From a virus (Duplodnaviria; Caudoviricetes): a DNA stretch of 63,943 nucleotides. Under the pieces are notes generated by a model. It did no database searches. It was not told the origin of the DNA and worked only from the letters and a program-made list of their open reading frames with translations. The stretch spans positions 1 to 63,943 of IMG/VR virus record IMGVR_UViG_3300025103_002730; one strand, 5' to 3'. The position numbers were made by a program, and so were the translations under genes. Below, one piece after another: positions 27,786-53,691 of this stretch; position 1 is the stretch's first letter, and every line of letters starts with the position of its first letter.

Positions 27786-29345
27786 TCAGATTTCGTGAAT
27801 TTTGTTTACAATGAAGGAATTATCCTGCTCTACGTCACCGCACAGCATTAGGTTGTTGCCCTCATAAAGAATGAACCTGTACTTTTCTCTGGTCTCAGGA
27901 AATACCACGACGCTATCAAGAGAACAGGAAGCGTCTTCAACGGTTAGGAATGACATGAGTTTGCCAAAGTTCTTGCCCTGCTTCTTGATCTTGAAGTTGT
28001 TCATCCTTGTGATGTTCACTACAAGACAGATATCCTTACCAAACTTCCCATTCGCGATATCCTTACATGAAGTGTTGGAGATAGACGTATCGACCGCTTC
28101 GACTTCACTTAGGGAAACTGGACAGCCCAAGAACTTCTTTTCCATCTCGACGATCCAAGAAGGGTCATCCGACATTCCGTATGGTGGGCTTGCCAGCATA
28201 CCCACTTCGTTCAGGACGATCTGACTACGGTTGGCGTTACTGGTCCCTCCACCCATCTTCTTTGTAGGAGACAGGTCTTGAAAACACTCACCAAGGGTTT
28301 CCCATCGTTTTTCCGGATACTGCGTTGTAACCCACTTCATTTCCGCCTTAGTCAGTTCACGGAATATAAGGTATTCGTACAGTGCCTTATTTCTGCTCAC
28401 ACCGGTAGATTTGGTAGAGAAAAACCCAATAGAACACAGGGCTTTGAAAGCAGTACTAGTTATGTTGGGAGCAATGTATAATAGAACATCCATCCAAGTG
28501 AATTCTTCCGGCTTCTTCTGCGACTCCCATACCGCAGCACCAATAGCCCTCACTACCTTGTCGCCAGTGACCCCAGTAAGACCCTTAACATCCTTGACCC
28601 CAAAGAACACGTCTCTACCCACACGCTCAAATTTCAGACCAAAAGAGGTTAGATTTGGCGACTTCACCTCAATGTCAAACAGTTTAGCCTCAGAGACCAG
28701 TTCATAGATCTCCTGATGGGTATCCTGTTTTTCATTCGCGTGGTATAGGTAAGACGTGAAGAACTCAACCGTGTGATTAGCCTTGTACCAAGCTGACCAA
28801 TAGGAGTCCTTAGCGTAAGCCACAGCGTGAGACTTATTGAATGAGTAACGAGACGACTTCTCGATCCAGCCAAAGATTTCCCTAGCAGTAACATCGTCTA
28901 CTATCCCAACTTTCTCACAACCCTTGATAAACTGCTCACGGATTTCCATCATCAGCTTGGCTTTCTTCTTTCCGATAGCCTTACGTAGATAGTCCGATTC
29001 CTGCTCGGTGAAACCTGCCAGCTTCACGGCGATACGCATCGCCTGCTCTTGATAGACCAACACCCCATAAGTCGTATTGAGAATATCTGCAAGAGAGTCA
29101 TGAAGGTAGGTTACCTCTTCTCGGCCAGCCTTACGGTCAACAAAACGCTGACTCATAGATTTGCCGTCAACGATAGCCTTTAAACATCCCGGTCTAATGA
29201 TCGCGATGAGTGCTGCCAACTCTTCAATATTGCTGGGTGCAACCTTCTTAGACCAAGACCTCCCAAGGTTACTCTCCAGTTGGAAAACACCCTTAGTAAG
29301 ACCGTTATGATACAAAGCCCACGTTTTTTCGTCTCTTAGATCCAT
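27786..29345 (-). CDS. dnaE: DNA polymerase III alpha subunit, C-terminal half
   Basis: 'GVFQLES', 'ALIAIIRPG', 'TYGVLVYQEQAM', 'LRKAIGKKK', 'YSFNKSHAVAY', and C-terminal OB fold 'MSFLTVEDAS...VVVFPE'. Confidence 0.9.
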   Translation of the reverse strand: MDLRDEKTWALYHNGLTKGVFQLESNLGRSWSKKVAPSNIEELAALIAIIRPGCLKAIVDGKSMSQRFVDRKAGREEVTYLHDSLADILNTTYGVLVYQEQAMRIAVKLAGFTEQESDYLRKAIGKKKAKLMMEIREQFIKGCEKVGIVDDVTAREIFGWIEKSSRYSFNKSHAVAYAKDSYWSAWYKANHTVEFFTSYLYHANEKQDTHQEIYELVSEAKLFDIEVKSPNLTSFGLKFERVGRDVFFGVKDVKGLTGVTGDKVVRAIGAAVWESQKKPEEFTWMDVLLYIAPNITSTAFKALCSIGFFSTKSTGVSRNKALYEYLIFRELTKAEMKWVTTQYPEKRWETLGECFQDLSPTKKMGGGTSNANRSQIVLNEVGMLASPPYGMSDDPSWIVEMEKKFLGCPVSLSEVEAVDTSISNTSCKDIANGKFGKDICLVVNITRMNNFKIKKQGKNFGKLMSFLTVEDASCSLDSVVVFPETREKYRFILYEGNNLMLCGDVEQDNSFIVNKIHEI

Positions 29346-46556: not shown

Positions 46557-47087
46557 TTATAGATCAGATTCTTTGACGAAGATTCCGTCGATCATTTTGC
46601 CTTTACGGTCTTTAATGTCTTCCCATGCTTTTGCAAGACAGTCTTCGAGAGAGATATTGTTTCTCTCAGTAATATTCAGCATAACGACTAACATATCCCC
46701 AATATCATCCCTGATATCCTTACCCTTACACACGCTGTCGGATAGCTCACCTAACTCTTGAGCGAGTTTTAGGGTTTGGTCCTTATCTGTGCTACCGTCT
46801 ATTAGGTTTCGGTCATGGTGCCACCCAATGACATCATCAATCAACGCCGCGAGGCGGTACTTGTTAGTAGTATATTGAATAGGTAACTCATAGTTATCCA
46901 TTAATCGTGCCTTCGCCCCGCGAAATAGACCATCCCTATTTGCGATAACACTGGTAACGTAGAAATTATTACCATGTTCATCTACTCCCGCCTCACATAC
47001 ACCAGACATAGGTATATCAAAGGTTCCTGCTTGCCATCCAGTCAACTGGGCCATTCTCGCCGTCTGATCCGCGTGCTGCTCTGTCAT
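46557..47087 (-). CDS. MazG-like nucleotide pyrophosphohydrolase
   Basis: 'QTLKLAQELGEL...DDIGDMLVV...LEDCL..AWEDIKDRKG...GIFVKE'. Confidence 0.85.
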   Translation of the reverse strand: MTEQHADQTARMAQLTGWQAGTFDIPMSGVCEAGVDEHGNNFYVTSVIANRDGLFRGAKARLMDNYELPIQYTTNKYRLAALIDDVIGWHHDRNLIDGSTDKDQTLKLAQELGELSDSVCKGKDIRDDIGDMLVVMLNITERNNISLEDCLAKAWEDIKDRKGKMIDGIFVKESDL

Positions 47088-47398
47088 AGTTTCATATCTC
47101 CAAAGTCCATGTCTTCCAAATCGTTCTTACTAGCACCAATTTTGTAACTGGTGATCTCATGTTCCTGAGGGGCGACCTGTACAGATTCGCTACTCATCCA
47201 AGGCTCAGTCCAACCAGCAATAGGGTTTTTGCCAACGTTGTCGTATGGCAGGCCAATATTCTTACGGCGTGACATACACAACCAATCAATATACTGGTGA
47301 AGAACATCGTAACGCTGAACACCAAGGTCTTTCCCTAGGAATAAGGGTTGACTCATAGGGTCCACATGTTTAAGATTGAAAATTGTTTTCATTGTCAC
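47084..47398 (-). CDS. nrdB: Mini ribonucleotide reductase beta subunit: N- and C-termini fused in frame, di-iron core deleted
   Basis: N-terminal 'TIFN...QPLFLG..LGVQRYD' and C-terminal 'LHQYIDWL...NPIAGWTEPW.SS..VQVAPQEHEITSY' both match class Ia NrdB; total length only 104 aa. Confidence 0.8.
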   Translation of the reverse strand: MTMKTIFNLKHVDPMSQPLFLGKDLGVQRYDVLHQYIDWLCMSRRKNIGLPYDNVGKNPIAGWTEPWMSSESVQVAPQEHEITSYKIGASKNDLEDMDFGDMKL

Positions 47399-47401
47399 TC
47401 A

Positions 47402-48022
47402 TTACCAAAGTAATACTGGTACTATTACTATGTCTTTGATTGAGGCGTCCCGCATGGTTACGCTACCCGTTTCACTGTCCGTTGAAAATTTAAGGACAAT
47501 ATCATACCGCTTACCCTTTTGGATATCCGTAAGGTTAACTTGATCACCGTCGTTTGGGAGGAACACTTCTACGGATTTCATCTCATAGTACACTCTCTGT
47601 ACGTAAAGTATGAAAACGCCAGATGGAGAATGAGAATTGTCTTCTATTACACGTCCCTGCTGACCCTCGCCCTCTAAGACATTGGTCTGATCGTTAGGTT
47701 CCGGTTTTGGGTCAGCGACCACATCCCATTTCTTACTCTTACCCTCGAAGAAAACCGTCTTTTCTTCTGTCCTCTCTTCATCTGTATAAAAAGCAAACTC
47801 ACCCTCTATTATGGGTTCTTCATCTATATCTATGAAAGGTTCTAACTTTCCATTCCCCATTATAGGGTCTAACGTAAAGCTGGTAGTCAGCCCAAAATGA
47901 GTAAGCCCAAAGTGACTTGGAGCAGCCGTCCCCACTACGGTAGCTACCAGAGGCTCACTAATAGGAAGTAAAGCCCCAGCAAATAACCCGCTCAACGCTT
48001 TGTTAAATGTTCTTCTATCCAC
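47402..48022 (-). CDS. Hypothetical protein with Tat-like signal peptide
   Basis: Starts MDRRTFNKALSGLFAGALLP (twin-arginine plus hydrophobic stretch); RBS GGAG. Confidence 0.6.
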   Translation of the reverse strand: MDRRTFNKALSGLFAGALLPISEPLVATVVGTAAPSHFGLTHFGLTTSFTLDPIMGNGKLEPFIDIDEEPIIEGEFAFYTDEERTEEKTVFFEGKSKKWDVVADPKPEPNDQTNVLEGEGQQGRVIEDNSHSPSGVFILYVQRVYYEMKSVEVFLPNDGDQVNLTDIQKGKRYDIVLKFSTDSETGSVTMRDASIKDIVIVPVLLW

Positions 48023-48158: not shown

Positions 48159-48187
48159 ATTATATCCCTCAGACCCCGTATTGTCAA
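48159..48187 (-). promoter_or_regulatory. Consensus sigma-70 promoter heading the replication/metabolism operon
   Basis: TTGACA-17 nt-TATAAT, perfect consensus. Confidence 0.85.
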
Positions 48188-48198
48188 TAGAAAAGTAC

Positions 48199-48238
48199 AA
48201 AAAAAGTCCCCTCGCAGCATAAAAGCCGCAAGAGGACT
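48199..48238 (-). terminator. Rho-independent terminator ending the membrane/lysis-like operon
   Basis: AGTCCTCTTGCGGC-TTTTAT-GCTGCGAGGGGACT followed by a T run. Confidence 0.8.
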
Positions 48239-48257: not shown

Positions 48258-48464
48258 TTAGTCGAGAGGTTTGTCAGGCTGAACAATTGTCACTTCGATT
48301 CCCTCTCCAAGCTGTATGGTGGCAATCTTCTTGCCGTCTTCCACTTTGAACTCAACCATGTCAATGATGGTTTTAACCCTTTCGACTTGTTCTTTTGTCA
48401 CACCTAGATGTTCAAGTACTGTGTCAACAAGGCGACCTGTTATTGTCATTGACTTGTACCCCAC
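48258..48464 (-). CDS. Small hypothetical protein
   Basis: Likely start MTITG overlapping the upstream stop. Confidence 0.5.
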   Translation of the reverse strand: MGYKSMTITGRLVDTVLEHLGVTKEQVERVKTIIDMVEFKVEDGKKIATIQLGEGIEVTIVQPDKPLD

Positions 48465-48922
48465 GAAATAGCGGTTAGGATCTTCACAAGTCGTTCACGG
48501 CGGTCACCATCTAATGGTATATTTTCTTTACCGATAGCAGAAATCACTGCTTTATCGATAGCTTCACCTAGATCTGGGTAGATGCCCTTGATATCTTGAC
48601 CAGCAAAGTTCATCGCACCAGCCATGATATTGAATTCACGGAACTGACCGGTGCTCTTTAAGAAGCCGGGGTCAGTCTCGATAACGCTTGCCATCTCAAC
48701 GAAGAAGGGTCTGAGTACAGATGAATGCTCTTTGCTAATATCAATGTCTACAACGTTTTTAACCATCTTCTGGTATAAATCGGACGGTTCGTCTACGACA
48801 ACTACGTCTGGCGTGTTTGGGGTAAAGTCTACGTTATCCTTTGCCCACTGAACTAATTGTTCCCCAAAGAGACCTGTAAGTACTAAAATGAAGGCGGCGA
48901 TAAGTCTTGTTTTTTTGTTCAT
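48446..48922 (-). CDS. Signal-anchored hypothetical protein
   Basis: Basic N-terminus plus hydrophobic helix and Pro-rich linker. Confidence 0.6.
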   Translation of the reverse strand: MNKKTRLIAAFILVLTGLFGEQLVQWAKDNVDFTPNTPDVVVVDEPSDLYQKMVKNVVDIDISKEHSSVLRPFFVEMASVIETDPGFLKSTGQFREFNIMAGAMNFAGQDIKGIYPDLGEAIDKAVISAIGKENIPLDGDRRERLVKILTAISWGTSQ

Positions 48923-49296
48923 AGTTCCACATTTCCTTGAACATCTTTACTGCTCGTGTCTGTAATACTGCCACGAAGGCCCCCAACGTCAGTATGCCCA
49001 GCCCCATCCTTGACAACAAATAGTGGGAAGATCTTGTCCAACTCAGAGATAGCTTCCGTCAACCCGCGATTAACAAGTTGGTTTCTGAGATCCTCCCAGC
49101 GTGACACTACAGTGCATAATGAATCTTCAGGGCATACCTCTGGATGGTCATTCTTTTCCGACGTAGGAACATCTTCTTTTTTCTCGTCCTTGACCCGCTT
49201 TAAGATTTTAGGCGAGATACCCTTAATCTGCCCCCAAAATGTGCTACCTCCAAGTAGTACTCCTAGACCAACTATGATCATCTGAAATGCCGTCAC
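48919..49296 (-). CDS. Membrane-anchored hypothetical protein
   Basis: N-terminal TM helix. Confidence 0.55.
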   Translation of the reverse strand: MTAFQMIIVGLGVLLGGSTFWGQIKGISPKILKRVKDEKKEDVPTSEKNDHPEVCPEDSLCTVVSRWEDLRNQLVNRGLTEAISELDKIFPLFVVKDGAGHTDVGGLRGSITDTSSKDVQGNVEL

Positions 49297-49308
49297 TACA
49301 CTGTCCCC

Positions 49309-49662
49309 CTATAGGTTTTTCTTAAATGAGTGGTAAGAACTAATCGCTTCGGTTAGTTCTTTTTCGGAAAGTTTTTCTGAAACATTGAGTAATGCGTTGA
49401 AGGCGGCTTTTCTTTCTCTGAAAGGTAATCTTTTAGCAATAACTCTTTTCATGACAAATCTAGCTATGAATCCCGGACGCTTGATAGAACTCTTGATGGA
49501 TTCCTCGTTGCTCCCACATCGATATAGAAGTCTTATTAACGTAAATATGATCTTGAATATTGTGATCAGTATCATAGGATCTACGCCAAAGTTTTTATCC
49601 TCTGACTTAGCGTAAACTAACACACGTGCTGCCAATTCTGTCAGCTTGTCGTCATTCATCAA
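49309..49662 (-). CDS. Single-TM hypothetical protein
   Basis: 'FGVDPMILITIFKIIFTLIRLLYRC' followed by a basic C-terminal region. Confidence 0.55.
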   Translation of the reverse strand: MMNDDKLTELAARVLVYAKSEDKNFGVDPMILITIFKIIFTLIRLLYRCGSNEESIKSSIKRPGFIARFVMKRVIAKRLPFRERKAAFNALLNVSEKLSEKELTEAISSYHSFKKNL

Positions 49663-50308
49663 TTTCAGCCTTTAAAATGGAAAGTACTTCTTGGTGCGTC
49701 TGAAAACCCTCAACTCTTTTCACTGGGCTATTCAAATCGTCTCTCGCCACGACCAACATGGTTGGGTAGGCACCAATCTTATAGTACTTGAAGAATTTCG
49801 AATAGTCCTTTTCTTCGTCGTCTTCATCCATTATATAAAGTGTTATCCGATTGTCAAGCAAAAACTTCTCTAATTCTGGATTTGCCCATGTTTTTTTCTG
49901 CATATCTATACACGGATGGCACCAACTGGCACCCATATGGTAAACCATAATGTTATTTCGGTCAGCCTCGTCTAGTAGGGCAACTCCTCCGAACCGTCCG
50001 TTTGTTTGGGCGTTTTGACCCTTGACGCAGTTGCAATTTGACTTCTTGCAACCGCACTGGCACTTTTTTGCGATGGGTTCCGGGGCTTTATTCTTACAAG
50101 CTGGACAACCGGGGCACTCCGTCTTGTGACCGTCACCATGAGTGATCCATCCAGTTCCATCACAAAGGTCGTTTACTGGGGCTTCTGGAGAATCTCCTGA
50201 GGTCATAATAGCTTTAGCTAAGTTTACTACCACGTATGGTCTATAAGCCCATGATCCTGATGAGGATGAAGTAAATACTAATAATGTAGCAAAAAGTAAG
50301 TTTTTCAT
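49652..50308 (-). CDS. Secreted thioredoxin-like protein with Cys-rich linker
   Basis: Signal peptide, 'CDGTG...CPGCPAC' and CQCGC...CNC clusters, WCHPC active site, cis-Pro 'YPT'. Confidence 0.8.
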   Translation of the reverse strand: MKNLLFATLLVFTSSSSGSWAYRPYVVVNLAKAIMTSGDSPEAPVNDLCDGTGWITHGDGHKTECPGCPACKNKAPEPIAKKCQCGCKKSNCNCVKGQNAQTNGRFGGVALLDEADRNNIMVYHMGASWCHPCIDMQKKTWANPELEKFLLDNRITLYIMDEDDEEKDYSKFFKYYKIGAYPTMLVVARDDLNSPVKRVEGFQTHQEVLSILKAEIDE

Positions 50309-50316
50309 TTTATACC

Positions 50317-51243
50317 CTACAAATATGTTGAAGTACCGTAGTCTAGTAAATCCCTGGCAGGGAAACCGTCTACGTTACTAAAGACCCAAGACCCCTGACT
50401 AGCCAGCATTCCTCTTGCGTCCTTTTCGCGAATCCAGAAGCTACCATCAGGCTGTCCATGCACCTTAGGACCGGAATTCCATCTACCCCAACTGTTTTGT
50501 ACAAGGAATAGTGTTTCATTGAACCTGTCGTTCGTGTCATCACAAGCAATCCACGCCATAGCGTGTGACCAGCCACTAGATCTCTTTGCTATGCCCTTGG
50601 CGTCTCTCCTAGAAGAAAAACCGTAACCAGAGCATACAGAGAGGGCATACCCGTTAGAGAGGGCGTCTCGTGCCTCCTGAACGGTCGTAACCATACTGAT
50701 CGTCTTGACTTGGTGCTTCTTTGCCTCAGTCGTATAGATAGACGCTGGGATGCGTTTTCTTGCACCTAGACTGGAATTGTAGGTTGATAGGTCTACTTTA
50801 CCGTAGTTCTTACGGAGTAGAATACCTCCCTTACTGTTCACGTATCTGGCCGCACCGGAACAGGTCATCCCCTGGCCGCTATGACTTCGTGATTGATAGA
50901 TACCCTCTGTAGCACCTCGTGCCTCAAAAGACTCTGATTCTCCCTTTACGTGGATTTCAACAGCACGACTGATATCCAAAGCGTTTCGTGTAGCGTGGCT
51001 AACACAGTCGCCGGTCGTTTGTTTTTCGGCGGGTCCAAAACCCGGATCAAATTTGAGTAATGACTTAAAGGGAAGGGAGAGTTTCCCCTCCCCCGAGCCA
51101 CACAACCCGAAAGCTGCTGGACCAAATAAGGGAGTCTTTAACTTACCAAGTAGCTCTGCAGTCTCTTTAGGGTCACATATGCTCCCCTCAAAACCATCAC
51201 GATAAGCGTTTAAGAGAGAACGTGGTGTATCAAACTCCCTCAT
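50317..51243 (-). CDS. Papain-like cysteine peptidase (C1 family)
   Basis: 'QTTGDCVSHA' (oxyanion Gln and catalytic Cys), 'WSHAM' (His), 'QNSWG' (Asn), 'GSFWI'. Confidence 0.85.
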   Translation of the reverse strand: MREFDTPRSLLNAYRDGFEGSICDPKETAELLGKLKTPLFGPAAFGLCGSGEGKLSLPFKSLLKFDPGFGPAEKQTTGDCVSHATRNALDISRAVEIHVKGESESFEARGATEGIYQSRSHSGQGMTCSGAARYVNSKGGILLRKNYGKVDLSTYNSSLGARKRIPASIYTTEAKKHQVKTISMVTTVQEARDALSNGYALSVCSGYGFSSRRDAKGIAKRSSGWSHAMAWIACDDTNDRFNETLFLVQNSWGRWNSGPKVHGQPDGSFWIREKDARGMLASQGSWVFSNVDGFPARDLLDYGTSTYL

Positions 51244-51245
51244 AA

Positions 51246-51461
51246 CTACTCCTTGTCGTCAGTGTTATTTTTCATCCACTTAATAACAGTGTCAAGAGCT
51301 AGAGCAATGACAGGTACTACAAGAGCACCCATATTGCCCAAGTCTAGTTCGCCAAGGTTTTGCATTACGTAAGTTACAGCGGCAGCACCGCCAACAAGTA
51401 GTGCGTTTTTACCCAAATTACTTAGGTCGGAAATATCAAGTTTGAACTTTTTAGATCCCAT
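51246..51461 (-). CDS. Holin-like small two-TM protein
   Basis: 71 aa, two hydrophobic helices, charged C-terminus, immediately upstream of the peptidase. Confidence 0.55.
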   Translation of the reverse strand: MGSKKFKLDISDLSNLGKNALLVGGAAAVTYVMQNLGELDLGNMGALVVPVIALALDTVIKWMKNNTDDKE

Positions 51462-51464
51462 TTG

Positions 51465-52043
51465 TTACTCCTGTATCTTGATGTGAATTAGAAATCCTTC
51501 ATGTTGACCATCATCTAATCGATAAGGGTGTCCAATGAAGCGAAGTTTCCTTTTATCTACAGATACGGTTTCGATATCAATTCTTCTGCTCATCATTAAG
51601 CAGGAACTAAGTTCGTCTAAGAAATTCCCTCTTTCTTCGTCGTCTACAACCGTAACCCAGTCTAATCCACCGCTAATGTCGCCCTGACCAACAGTCTGTT
51701 GGTAGAAATTTTCATTAGCCCAGATTAGATTTCCTTCCCTGTCAGTCTCAAAGAGACACCTATCCTGATAATGCAACGCTATCTTCGAACGTTGATCAAT
51801 AACTGTTTGGCGTACTTCCATGCGATCACAGGTGTTAGAAAGTTTCAATACCATATCTTTAATAGAACCACCTCCGTTGTAACTGACTTCGGATTTGATT
51901 TCTAAGATACTATTCTTGATTTCTTTCTGGTCTTTAAACCAAACACGAGTAACTTTGAAGAAACGCCACAGAAAAATGATAGCAGAGCCAATCGCACCCA
52001 CCAGAGATGCGATGGCTACAATTTCGTCTATGGTGATGTTCAT
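51465..52043 (-). CDS. Membrane-anchored PAS-domain protein
   Basis: N-terminal TM, coiled coil, then 'FETDREGNLIWANENF...DWVTVVDDEER...' PAS-like fold. Confidence 0.7.
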   Translation of the reverse strand: MNITIDEIVAIASLVGAIGSAIIFLWRFFKVTRVWFKDQKEIKNSILEIKSEVSYNGGGSIKDMVLKLSNTCDRMEVRQTVIDQRSKIALHYQDRCLFETDREGNLIWANENFYQQTVGQGDISGGLDWVTVVDDEERGNFLDELSSCLMMSRRIDIETVSVDKRKLRFIGHPYRLDDGQHEGFLIHIKIQE

Positions 52044-52067
52044 AATGACTCCTACGAACGAGCCATC

Positions 52068-52730
52068 TTAGGATTCGTAAGAGTCTTGTGCCTTGTAGTC
52101 GTCACTCTGAGGATTTTTGCCACCAAACATATACGTCAACTCACCCGGAATAGCACGGGTTGTGTTTGCGGCAGCGTCGGCAGAAGCCTCATTTCCAGCA
52201 CCGCTTGGGCGGACAAAGTCAGAAGCAACACCGGTATTACCGCTCTTAGTTACAAACGAGTTGTAACCAGACGCTGGTGCAGCTAAAACGTCTATATCTA
52301 CAGTGCCATACAGGTGTGTACCTGAAGCCTGCATAGTAGATCCTCTGGAAGGATCAGCACCGTGTACATCAGCAGCACCACCAATCAGCAGTGTGTTAGC
52401 TACACCACCCAAGGTAGTTGTTACATTACCACCTTGAACAACCCACTCAGTGGCACCAGCCTGATAACCAAGCTGAGTAGTACCTTCTGTTATAGCACCG
52501 GGAACAGCACCAGAAATACCAACTTTGTCAGTATATTGAGATCCTGTACCATCTTGTGCAATTACCTTAGAACCATAGCTTTGACCTACGTCGTCAGCTA
52601 GTACGGAAAGAACAAGGTTGTTGTTAACAGGACTGTCTGAGGCGGGAGTTCCGCCGTGTACAACAGTTCCACCATCACGATTTTCAACGGCTGGCTGGTC
52701 GCCAGCACCACTTGGAGCTACAGTAGCCAC
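52068..52730 (-). CDS. Putative virion protein (G/A/T/S-rich)
   Basis: Amino-acid composition; RBS AGGAG; preceded by the GTGTATAAT motif. Confidence 0.5.
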   Translation of the reverse strand: MATVAPSGAGDQPAVENRDGGTVVHGGTPASDSPVNNNLVLSVLADDVGQSYGSKVIAQDGTGSQYTDKVGISGAVPGAITEGTTQLGYQAGATEWVVQGGNVTTTLGGVANTLLIGGAADVHGADPSRGSTMQASGTHLYGTVDIDVLAAPASGYNSFVTKSGNTGVASDFVRPSGAGNEASADAAANTTRAIPGELTYMFGGKNPQSDDYKAQDSYES

Positions 52731-52804: not shown

Positions 52805-52813
52805 ATTATACAC
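52805..52813 (-). promoter_or_regulatory. GTGTATAAT motif, putative late promoter
   Basis: Overlaps the sigma-gene stop codon; upstream of the virion/lysis-like operon. Confidence 0.5.
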
Positions 52814-53279
52814 TTTTTAAAAGCGAAACTTTCAGTTTTTCCAGATTTTTCTGAAGTCTAACACGAATAGTCTCGCCACAAACTTGCCTATCTTCCGCCA
52901 ATTCCTTGATCGTCATGTTGTTATAGAACCTATCCATTATAAGTGACGGATCTTCACATGTTGCCGAAATGGTGTCCAACATGTCAATTTGAGCGACCGG
53001 ATCGTGCTTATCTTCAATGTTTTCATGAAGAACAGCGGCTTTTTTGGATTTATTGAACTTTCTTTGGCTGAGACACTCGTACACCACACCCGTATGTAGG
53101 TAGGAAGTGAATTTGGTCCCATTACGCTTATTGTACCGTTCTGACGCCCTCCACAGTGCGTTTAAAATACAACTTTGGATCTCATCCTGTGACAAAACCG
53201 TAGCAAAAGATGACGCCGCACTGTATGCGATGTTCATTACGTCTTCGTCATTCAGGTACTTCTGGATTTTCTTGTTCAT
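52806..53279 (-). CDS. Phage-encoded sigma-70-like factor
   Basis: Region 2 'ALWRASERYNKRNGTKFTSYL' and region 4 'RFYNNMTIKELAEDRQVCGETIRVRL..LEKLK'. Start taken as MNKK at 53279. Confidence 0.8.
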   Translation of the reverse strand: MNKKIQKYLNDEDVMNIAYSAASSFATVLSQDEIQSCILNALWRASERYNKRNGTKFTSYLHTGVVYECLSQRKFNKSKKAAVLHENIEDKHDPVAQIDMLDTISATCEDPSLIMDRFYNNMTIKELAEDRQVCGETIRVRLQKNLEKLKVSLLKSV

Positions 53280-53691
53280 GTGTTTTTCCTTTACTTGTAA
53301 TAGTTTGTTCAATCTCTGCTCTGACTTCGCCGAAGTCGAACATTCTTCCAATCCCAACAAAAAACCTATATCTACTACAGATTTTTAAAACTTCCACGCC
53401 GCTAGTTTCGCTCAGTGTGTCCCTTATCTCCTCCGTTATGCTGAAGTTGGTGTGTCCCATCCAGCAGTTAAAATTTGATGCTATAGAGATATTCTCCATT
53501 AGCCGCTCGTTAATAGGAATGAGCAGTTGGTCCTCTTTCCTATCTTGTTCATCCTGATAAGGCACGCCTTCTTCTTCAGAGTCTTCTACCGCTCCCTCTT
53601 GTCTGTGTAACATGTCTAACAGTGGAGACTCAAGCTGACTTTGTAGTAAATCTTCGTATTTTTGCCAACCCACTTTGTTATTTGTTTTCAT
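53248..53691 (-). CDS. Hypothetical protein
   Basis: 147-aa ORF coupled to the sigma gene. Confidence 0.55.
   Translation of the reverse strand: MKTNNKVGWQKYEDLLQSQLESPLLDMLHRQEGAVEDSEEEGVPYQDEQDRKEDQLLIPINERLMENISIASNFNCWMGHTNFSITEEIRDTLSETSGVEVLKICSRYRFFVGIGRMFDFGEVRAEIEQTITSKGKTHEQENPEVPE

Follow-up and report, generated by a model that had tools for sequence, protein, structure and literature searches.

Operon structure

The IMG/VR virus record IMGVR_UViG_3300025103_002730, analysed over its whole length of 63,943 bases (the window; estimated completeness 38%), contains an operon of nine open reading frames (ORFs; g1 to g9) on the minus strand at positions 52730-48258, separated by short gaps or overlapping (Table 1). 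A sequence-only reading of the same DNA had described one operon bounded by a motif and a terminator, and this description holds, with a GTGTATAAT motif 5' of g1 and a hairpin with a run of T residues 3' of g9; the gene content that it listed was borne out by hydropathy and sequence inspection. The arrangement exceeds chance and recurs in related phage contigs. The genes of chief interest are g4, a papain-family cysteine peptidase, and g8, an anchored helical bundle on which the C-terminal tail of g4 is predicted to dock. With a probability that we put at about even, the operon acts late and on the envelope, as a lysis-like module that brings the protease together with a membrane partner of its own. 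The new elements of this analysis are natural protein fusions, the predicted docking and the co-variation that accompanies it, two promoter classes, counts of the thioredoxin domain, and a caveat on the sensitivity of Pfam.

Table 1. Features of the operon and its borders in the window
Feature	Position	Strand	Basis or remark
GTGTATAAT promoter-like motif without a -35 box	52805..52813	-	75 nt 5' of g1
Sigma-factor-like gene directly 5' of the operon	52806..53360	-	Sigma70_r4 E 7e-4, under the cut-off
g1, 220 aa, Gly/Ala/Thr-rich, no Cys, no hydrophobic segment	52068..52730	-	ORF; not named in the sequence-only reading
g2, 192 aa, N-terminal membrane anchor, possible PAS-like domain	51465..52043	-	Hydrophobic segment 8-26
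g3, 71 aa, holin-like small membrane protein directly 5' of g4	51246..51461	-	Hydropathy
g4, 308 aa, C1A (xylellain-type) papain-family cysteine peptidase, predicted docking tail 295-308	50317..51243	-	Fold and catalytic site
g5, 218 aa, signal peptide, Cys-rich domain (~47-95), thioredoxin domain with WCHPC (~110-215)	49652..50308	-	Sequence and Pfam
g6, 117 aa, one internal hydrophobic segment (25-43)	49309..49662	-	Hydropathy
g7, 125 aa, N-terminal membrane anchor	48919..49296	-	Hydropathy
g8, 158 aa, N-terminally anchored four-helix bundle, predicted partner of the g4 tail	48446..48922	-	AlphaFold2 model, fusions, complex prediction
g9, 68 aa, soluble	48258..48464	-	ORF, hydropathy
Intrinsic-terminator-like hairpin, 14-bp stem with 8 G-C pairs, then T run	48205..48238	-	Closes the operon

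A divergent papain-family peptidase

By its AlphaFold2 (AF2) model (predicted local distance difference test score, pLDDT, 94.8), g4 has a full two-domain papain fold and is a member of the C1A family. A Foldseek search of the PDB with this model gave 248 matches at E <= 0.001, with xylellain (3ois, E 1.4e-9) best and cathepsins next, and all 50 among the matches listed were papain-family enzymes; VIA-align superimposed g4 on xylellain with Z 21.4 and a root-mean-square deviation of 2.9 over 232 residues, and on cathepsins and papain with Z 17-20. In the model a helix begins at residue 80, the catalytic Cys, and Q75 is the Gln of the oxyanion hole. In an alignment of 65 sequences C80, H227 and W252 are invariant while Q75, N250 and S251 are at least 90% conserved, and the family profile aligns the His segment and the NSWG segment, which includes the Asn-Ser-Trp motif N250-S251-W252, to caricain. 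Fold, conserved residues and hydropathy, with no N-terminal hydrophobic segment, agree with the earlier description of g4 as a C1 cysteine peptidase with an intact Q/C/H/N site and no signal peptide. The Pfam model of the family (PF00112) did not match the g4 protein at E <= 0.1, nor did it match at E <= 1 in six-frame searches of six records (G000-G005); as a single sequence, g4 had no Pfam or PHROG match, and a search of PDB sequences gave a chance match only (E 2.4). Because the Pfam model is silent yet a profile of the g4 family matched papain-family chains only among PDB sequences (caricain 3.1e-5, xylellain 8.2e-5), g4 is, at the level of sequence profiles, a divergent member of the papain family and not a non-member.

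The viral structure neighbours of g4 are phage proteins named Peptidase_C1, a few with names that suggest cell-wall binding, and its language-model neighbours are viral clusters named Peptidase C1A. A word-indexed search found 1505 family members at E <= 0.001, the best 120 of which are 74-94% identical, and an exhaustive search found 1390 clusters at 50% identity; many marine metagenome records are among the relatives. Mature C1A enzymes align with the g4 model from residue ~50, and zymogens already from residue ~6, with the final stretch of the propeptide included in the alignment; the first ~50 residues of g4, which in this alignment sit where the inhibitory prosegment lies, may be inhibitory too. 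Among the cysteines of g4 only the catalytic one is conserved, and g4 therefore appears to have no structural disulfides.

Eight of the ten long g4 homologues scanned (homologues among P0121-P0266) contain intein and LAGLIDADG domains. Across 44 long homologues the alignment breaks at three sites, namely between D79 and C80, just after H227, and at N250/SWG; an intein before C80 makes the catalytic Cys its +1 residue, and some homologues (1037-1041 aa) have two inteins. Since these sites fall at the three catalytic residues, they mark the most conserved sites of g4, and insertion at all three is a natural marker of the active site.

Fusion to g8 and predicted docking

The AF2 model of g8 (pLDDT 88.4) consists of a helix (residues 3-30) and a bundle (residues 48-156). 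Foldseek found nothing at E <= 0.001 for this fold, and the best VIA match (Z 6.5) was to generic helical bundles, which rules out g8 as a hidden lysozyme. The association of g8 with the peptidase is evident from natural fusions: when the 150 best representatives of the g4 family (clusters) are compared, the g4 domain follows a hydrophobic N-terminal anchor and a g8-like domain in 14, and two have the Cys-rich domain of g5 after g4, one of these carrying anchor, g8-like, g4 and Cys-rich parts together. For the separate proteins, prediction of a complex between g4 and residues 40-158 of g8 gave an interface score (ipSAE) of 0.83 (0.81, 0.83 and 0.86 in individual runs), compared with 0.01 for the best of three controls; the mark applied to this score is attained by 58 of 80 solved complexes and by 2 of 110 mismatched pairs. 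The runs share at least 90% of their contacts, with a pLDDT of at least 88 for the partner, and place the C-terminal tail of g4 (residues 295-308) in the g8 bundle (residues 91-134). These predictions support binding of g4 to g8 via its tail.

The tail also varies together with g8. Across 65 loci, identity of the tail correlates with identity of g8 with a Spearman coefficient of 0.89, whereas the coefficient for the g4 core and g8 is 0.55. In the 38 loci with a tail of type LPDYG..YL, g8 is 47% and the g4 core 78% identical, and in the 27 loci with a tail of type IDWTIDEVF the corresponding values are 24% and 76%. The type of tail appears to track divergence of g8 and not of the g4 core, a pattern that, with few independent lineages, is supportive only.

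The side of the membrane on which this contact would occur can be estimated from the free proteins. In free g8 the anchor is preceded by positive charges and followed by acidic residues, and the free Cys-rich g5 protein has a signal peptide or an anchor, which would put both on the periplasmic side. Because of the positive-inside charges of g8 and the signal peptide or anchor of g5, the g4 domains fused to them would be on the outer side of the membrane, and the protease would be expected at the periplasmic face of the membrane rather than in virion maturation. A role in virion maturation is unlikely, as the structural module of the complete relative G001 has a Clp-type protease that covers head maturation. 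Only two loci with fused g4 were compared (L180 and L181), and these have no homologues of g3, tm62 or fam20, with other small membrane proteins nearby. The sequence-only reading was correct in listing membrane-anchored trailing proteins, with one hydrophobic segment each in g6, g7 and g8, but its suggestion that they are spanin analogues is not supported: in the prediction g8 serves as the site where g4 docks, and none of g6 to g9 has a lipobox Cys after an N-terminal hydrophobic segment.

Conservation of the module

Co-occurrence was assessed in a close set of 80 loci compared by tblastn, many of which end before the neighbouring genes, and in a distant set of 77 loci found with a sub-family profile, in which g4 is 35-55% identical to the query (three of 80 were dropped as they had no ORF call). 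All 80 close loci have g4, and they contain g5 (61), g7 (49), g8 (47), g3 (45), g2 (43), g1 (41), g6 (34) and g9 (34). The 77 distant loci contain the Cys-rich part of g5 (37), g3 (32), g1 (25; family 3), g8 (22), g2 (20), the sigma-factor-like gene (10) and g6 (9; family 14), and counterparts of g7 in families 17/12. The genes thus co-occur in relatives, both in the close loci and where g4 identity falls to 35-55%. The gene-order conservation that had been proposed as a check stands as co-occurrence and fails as a fixed order, which differs between clades.

In one arrangement, a glycosyltransferase gene, two small genes and the sigma-factor-like gene precede g1 to g9. In another clade (clade B), the genes after g4 encode an exported Cys-rich protein that lacks the thioredoxin domain, a two-segment membrane protein of 62 aa, and g7- and g8-like proteins, with the sigma-factor-like gene and g1 further downstream. 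Pfam and PHROG scans of the neighbours in clade B and the distant loci found only Transgly_assoc (PF04226) in one family, sub-threshold coiled-coil matches and weak matches to holin PHROGs. The Transgly_assoc protein is a small membrane protein added to the module in some distant relatives (L168:8594-8839 and its relatives), and some distant relatives have in the module a 105-114-aa protein with an N-terminal 'SEFWF' membrane segment. The single distant g4 homologues P0231 and P0205, used as queries, retrieved no viral loci.

Genome context and promoter classes

Outside the operon, the window encodes pieces of the DNA polymerase III alpha subunit, DnaB, a primase-type Toprim protein, RecA, PhoH, ThyX, SSB, the sigma-factor-like protein, many glycosyltransferases and sugar-nucleotide enzymes, and four tRNAs. 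Five long relatives give a view of the entire genome: G001 (172,984 bases, with terminal repeats), G002 (166,833), G003 (157,369), G004 (138,542) and G005 (130,845), with completeness of 100, 100, 100, 94 and 88%, respectively. In G001 the operon is on one strand together with small early genes as well as replication and sugar genes, and the opposite strand has, from ~51 to 128 kb, a structural block that encodes terminase, a cement protein and the Clp-type protease, its longest ORF having 4141 aa; among the relatives, structural ORFs as large as 4141 and 2860 aa occur. The source of the window is a large uncultured marine tailed phage with a genome of about 130-175 kb.

The GTGTATAAT motif occurs five times in the window compared with 0.64 expected, a number that none of 100 shuffled sequences reached. 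In 32 of 56 close relatives it lies within 150 nt (55-93 nt) 5' of the g1 homologue, where the background is 0.0145 per 150 nt. Of the ten sites in G001, seven are in the structural region on its coding strand, for the most part in gaps that immediately precede an ORF, and one is 5' of g1; all 16 perfect TTGACA-N16-18-TATAAT sites are on one strand of the small-gene early region (131-163 kb). G001 therefore has two promoter classes, a sigma70-type class for small genes and a -35-less GTGTATAAT class for structural genes and the operon. Because the motif is common to both, the promoter sequences suggest that the operon is transcribed together with the structural genes. The sigma-factor-like gene is 5' of g1 in most clade-A relatives, and belongs to family 11 in the ten distant loci that have it. 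A perfect TTGACA-16-TATAAT sequence inside g5 (window 49830-49857, minus strand), 168 nt 5' of g6, may be an internal promoter or due to chance.

Candidate holin and other members of the operon

The protein encoded by g3 has a strong hydrophobic segment at residues 42-60, preceded by a weaker, Gly/Ala-rich one, and its C-terminus is charged. The sequence-only reading had called it a two-segment, holin-sized protein directly 5' of g4; the size, position and charged tail agree, and the second hydrophobic stretch is only weak. In the distant loci, its homologues are located one to four genes 5' of g4. A protein language model put g3 next to a cluster named 'Holin family protein' (score 0.94); this name is no more than a lead. 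The 60-62-aa membrane proteins of other clades, of which two were scanned singly, have weak matches to phrog_297 and phrog_9987 (E 0.006-0.05), and among 77 small membrane proteins of related loci, 13, 7 and 5 match the three holin PHROGs (297, 4712 and 9987); this 60-62-aa holin-like family is absent from the window. Comparison of g3 with the 'SEFW' family by hhalign rejected a relationship (probability 0.3%).

The description of g5 as a thioredoxin with a signal peptide, WCHPC and a Cys cluster was confirmed by its signal-peptide-like N-terminus, 11 Cys and WCHPC motif, and by Pfam matches above the cut-off of 27 bits to Thioredoxin_7 (32.3 bits) and Thioredoxin_2 (29.7 bits, also against a cut-off of 27); its nearest solved sequences are those of the periplasmic C-terminal domain of DsbD (E 9e-5). 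The further proposal that thioredoxin activates the peptidase is not supported, since just 31 of the 80 close loci and 4 of 80 in the distant set have the thioredoxin domain, compared with 66 and 20, respectively, for the Cys-rich N-terminal part. Judged by this distribution, the Cys-rich part of g5 is the conserved partner and the thioredoxin domain is a lineage-specific accessory. For g2, described earlier as a membrane-bound PAS protein, the N-terminal transmembrane segment is confirmed and the PAS domain is not established (PAS_4 E 0.034, 14.8 bits against a cut-off of 23.1); residues 1-86 match phrog_1009, of unknown function (E 4.9e-5), and a search against PDB sequences gave no match at E <= 1. 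No Pfam or PHROG family was found for g1, g6 or g7, and g9 has a sub-threshold match only, to Bac_DNA_binding (E 0.051).

Search for another endolysin

As the sequence-only reading had stated, the window contains no recognisable lysozyme, amidase, M15 or M23 enzyme, either among the families listed in Pfam scans of its 84 ORFs or in six-frame searches with six families of the lysozyme, amidase, M15 and M23 types. Sixteen Pfam families (lysozymes, amidases, transglycosylases, M15/M23/VanY, NlpC/P60 and CHAP) had zero matches in the five long relatives, and eight of the 16 also had zero matches in the window. Pfam scans of 107 ORFs of G001 found no endolysin.

Proposed function

In the proposed mechanism, the operon would be transcribed from the -35-less GTGTATAAT promoter, of a class also found 5' of structural genes. 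From their N-terminal sequences, g2, g3, g6, g7 and g8 would insert into the inner membrane and g5 would be secreted; g4, without a signal peptide, would accumulate in the cytoplasm, where structural alignment suggests that it may be kept inactive by its N-terminal segment of ~50 residues. At the end of infection g3 would permeabilise the membrane, g4 would get to the periplasmic face, and its tail (295-308) is predicted to dock in the four-helix bundle of anchored g8. There g4 would cleave a peptide or protein component of the envelope and the cell would open, in place of the action of the muralytic endolysin of other phages; the thioredoxin domain of g5 may keep the catalytic thiol or the substrate reduced in the periplasm. 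The earlier placement of the peptidase in the endolysin position, with a lysis-like role at the envelope, is supported circumstantially, by co-occurrence, the lack of an endolysin family in the searches above, the promoter class, the fusions and the predicted complex. A specific form of this proposal is that a widespread aquatic clade of tailed phages replaced the muralytic endolysin by a C1A protease that is either released via a small membrane protein or exported as an anchored fusion, docks on g8, and cuts protein or peptide links of the envelope with a Cys-rich partner; we regard this as possible and somewhat doubtful.

Several observations weigh against a lysis role. We know of no C1A peptidase that cuts peptidoglycan. 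In the 80 close loci g4 is 72-94% identical, compared with mostly 25-65% for its neighbours, and its homologues contain inteins; as far as we know, neither such strong conservation nor inteins are usual in lysis enzymes. The operon does not close the structural module but has the sigma-factor gene and replication genes beside it, and its order is not fixed, g4 in clade B being directly 3' of a glycosyltransferase gene with g1, g2 and g3 not upstream. Of the partners that a lysis cassette would be expected to include, g3 matches no PHROG family (297, 4712 and 9987 among them), the holin family PF16945 has no match at E <= 1 in any of the six records, and a relationship of g3 to the 60-62-aa holin-like proteins was rejected (hhalign probability 0.6%); sequence inspection of g6 to g9 found no candidate for a lipoprotein-type spanin. 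The co-variation of the tail with g8 comes from very few independent lineages. The lack of an endolysin is itself weak evidence when it is based on Pfam: control genomes were also silent in three of the 16 family searches, and because PF00112 overlooks g4 in six of six records, even at E <= 1, absence calls based on families are unreliable in this phage group, and an equally divergent muralytic enzyme could hide among the unannotated ORFs. Lastly, the papain-superfamily cell-wall enzymes used by phages, in the text of PMC10318531, are CHAP, NlpC/P60 and Amidase_5.

These points leave room for a role at the envelope without lysis, in which the protease would act with its membrane partners to trim or remodel proteins of the periplasm or outer envelope, such as by removal of a receptor to exclude superinfecting phages or by preparation of the envelope for glycan changes, and an unrecognised enzyme would lyse the cell. 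The topological evidence for it equals that for lysis; genes for glycosyltransferases and sugar-nucleotide enzymes abound in the window and its relatives, and in one clade g4 lies directly 3' of a glycosyltransferase gene; g4 is so strongly conserved that its target in the host may well be conserved too; and divergent enzymes of these phages can escape Pfam. We nevertheless consider it unlikely, given that the promoter motif of the operon is common to structural genes and is not that of the early sigma70-type promoters, whereas exclusion functions are usually early; that g4, without a signal peptide, needs permeabilisation of the membrane to meet g8; and that no endolysin family was found in five long relatives.

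The missing signal peptide, together with the conservation of the catalytic Cys alone and hence of no structural disulfides, would also fit a cytoplasmic g4, tethered by g8 to the inner side of the membrane and active in host takeover or in processing of phage proteins such as the giant structural ones (relatives have ORFs of 4141 and 2860 aa), with the neighbouring membrane proteins functionally unrelated; strong conservation and inteins are typical of core enzymes. This arrangement is improbable, as 14 of 150 representatives are anchor-g8-g4 fusions and in two g4 is followed by a Cys-rich domain that is exported or anchored when free, which puts the protease outside; the positive charges before the g8 anchor and the Clp-type protease of the structural module also argue against it. 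Even a chance neighbourhood of unrelated accessory genes has some points in its favour, in that gene order varies between clades, the thioredoxin domain is often absent and most members have no family. We consider it very improbable, for co-occurrence persists to 35-55% g4 identity, fusions join g8, g4 and the Cys-rich domain, the complex is predicted with clean controls and a tail that co-varies with g8, and the common promoter motif and the terminator bound the operon.

If the module is a lysis system, it would be a conserved, protease-centred one and a new way of ending infection; to our knowledge, all phage lysis enzymes described so far cut peptidoglycan. If an endolysin has indeed been replaced, phage lysis would gain a new class of enzyme, one equipped with a targeting subunit of its own, and a lysis role would imply that proteolysis of some envelope component is lethal. 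The module is found in an abundant phage group in which no endolysin has been recognised, and the predicted docking of the g4 tail on its g8 receptor is a concrete, testable handle.

Relation to known systems

Xylellain of Xylella fastidiosa (PDB 3OIS), the best structural match of g4, has the same Q/C/H/N-S-W site, and the profile match to it covers positions 66-286 (E 8.2e-5); like xylellain and other short bacterial C1A enzymes, g4 has an N-terminal extension where the propeptides of zymogens lie. It differs in being only ~17-18% identical, in having no PF00112 match, and in being phage-encoded in an operon of membrane proteins, with a C-terminal tail predicted to dock on g8. Xylellain-type short C1A peptidases have been acquired by Myoviridae and Siphoviridae (PMC10380794), and no function for the phage copies was found in the text of that paper, whose supplements may list them. 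No description of this module or its role was found in searches of the published literature, where supplementary files may list phage copies.

The order of a small membrane protein directly before a soluble hydrolase without a signal peptide, and then anchored proteins, is also that of cassettes of the lambda S-R-Rz/Rz1 type, as is the sharing of a promoter class with structural genes; the differences are that g4 is a C1A protease and not a muramidase, an amidase or a known cell-wall endopeptidase, that g3 is outside the holin families, that there is no lipoprotein spanin, and that the enzyme has a predicted docking partner in the membrane. Signal-anchor-release (SAR) endolysins and pinholins (P1 Lyz; R and S of phage 21) offer a second parallel, as one family includes both soluble forms beside a small membrane protein and N-terminally anchored forms. 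In contrast to SAR endolysins, the anchor of the g4 fusions bears an extra helical domain (g8), and any release from the membrane would be hypothetical.

The CHAP, NlpC/P60 and Amidase_5 domains of endolysins resemble g4 as Cys-His hydrolases of the papain superfamily, but theirs are minimal single-domain folds, in contrast to the complete C1A fold of g4 with its two domains; searches with PF05257 and PF00877 found no match in the five long relatives. Cwp84 of Clostridioides difficile (PDB 4CI7) is a surface-layer-associated enzyme with a C1A fold (VIA Z 17.9 over 230 residues) that acts on a cell-envelope protein. It ranks no better than many cathepsins and is a host enzyme with a lectin-like domain; similarity of its substrate to that of g4 is not implied.

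Host and neighbouring genes

Searches of cultured phages (INPHARED) by DNA and by protein gave no match to the operon, g4, g3 or the 62-aa protein of clade B, and the sole match to a glycosyltransferase of the window was in a Tetrasphaera phage (24.5% identity). A scan with a single protein located nine related loci in contigs (up to 152,655 bases) of metagenome-assembled genomes, the labels of which disagree (SAR202, Flavobacteriales, Promethearchaeota, Alphaproteobacteria and Myxococcales), probably as a result of mis-binning of phage contigs. These labels single out no host and do not bear out the host with an atypical wall, such as Planctomycetota, that the sequence-only reading had suggested. 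The early promoters of G001 fit a bacterial host with a standard sigma70.

Just 3' of the operon is a 206-aa ORF (window 47402-48022, minus strand) with a Tat-like N-terminus (RRTFNK and a hydrophobic stretch); it has its own perfect TTGACA-17-TATAAT promoter (48159-48187, minus strand) beyond the operon terminator, and homologues in only two or three of the 80 related loci. A 104-aa ORF with no Pfam family (window 47084-47398, minus strand) has homologues with 81-95% identity in 41 of the 80 related loci, a level of conservation well above that of its neighbours. The finger, NTPase and PHP domains of the DNA polymerase III alpha subunit are on separate ORFs (window 27786-29345, minus strand, and neighbouring ORFs), which suggests that the polymerase gene is split or interrupted.

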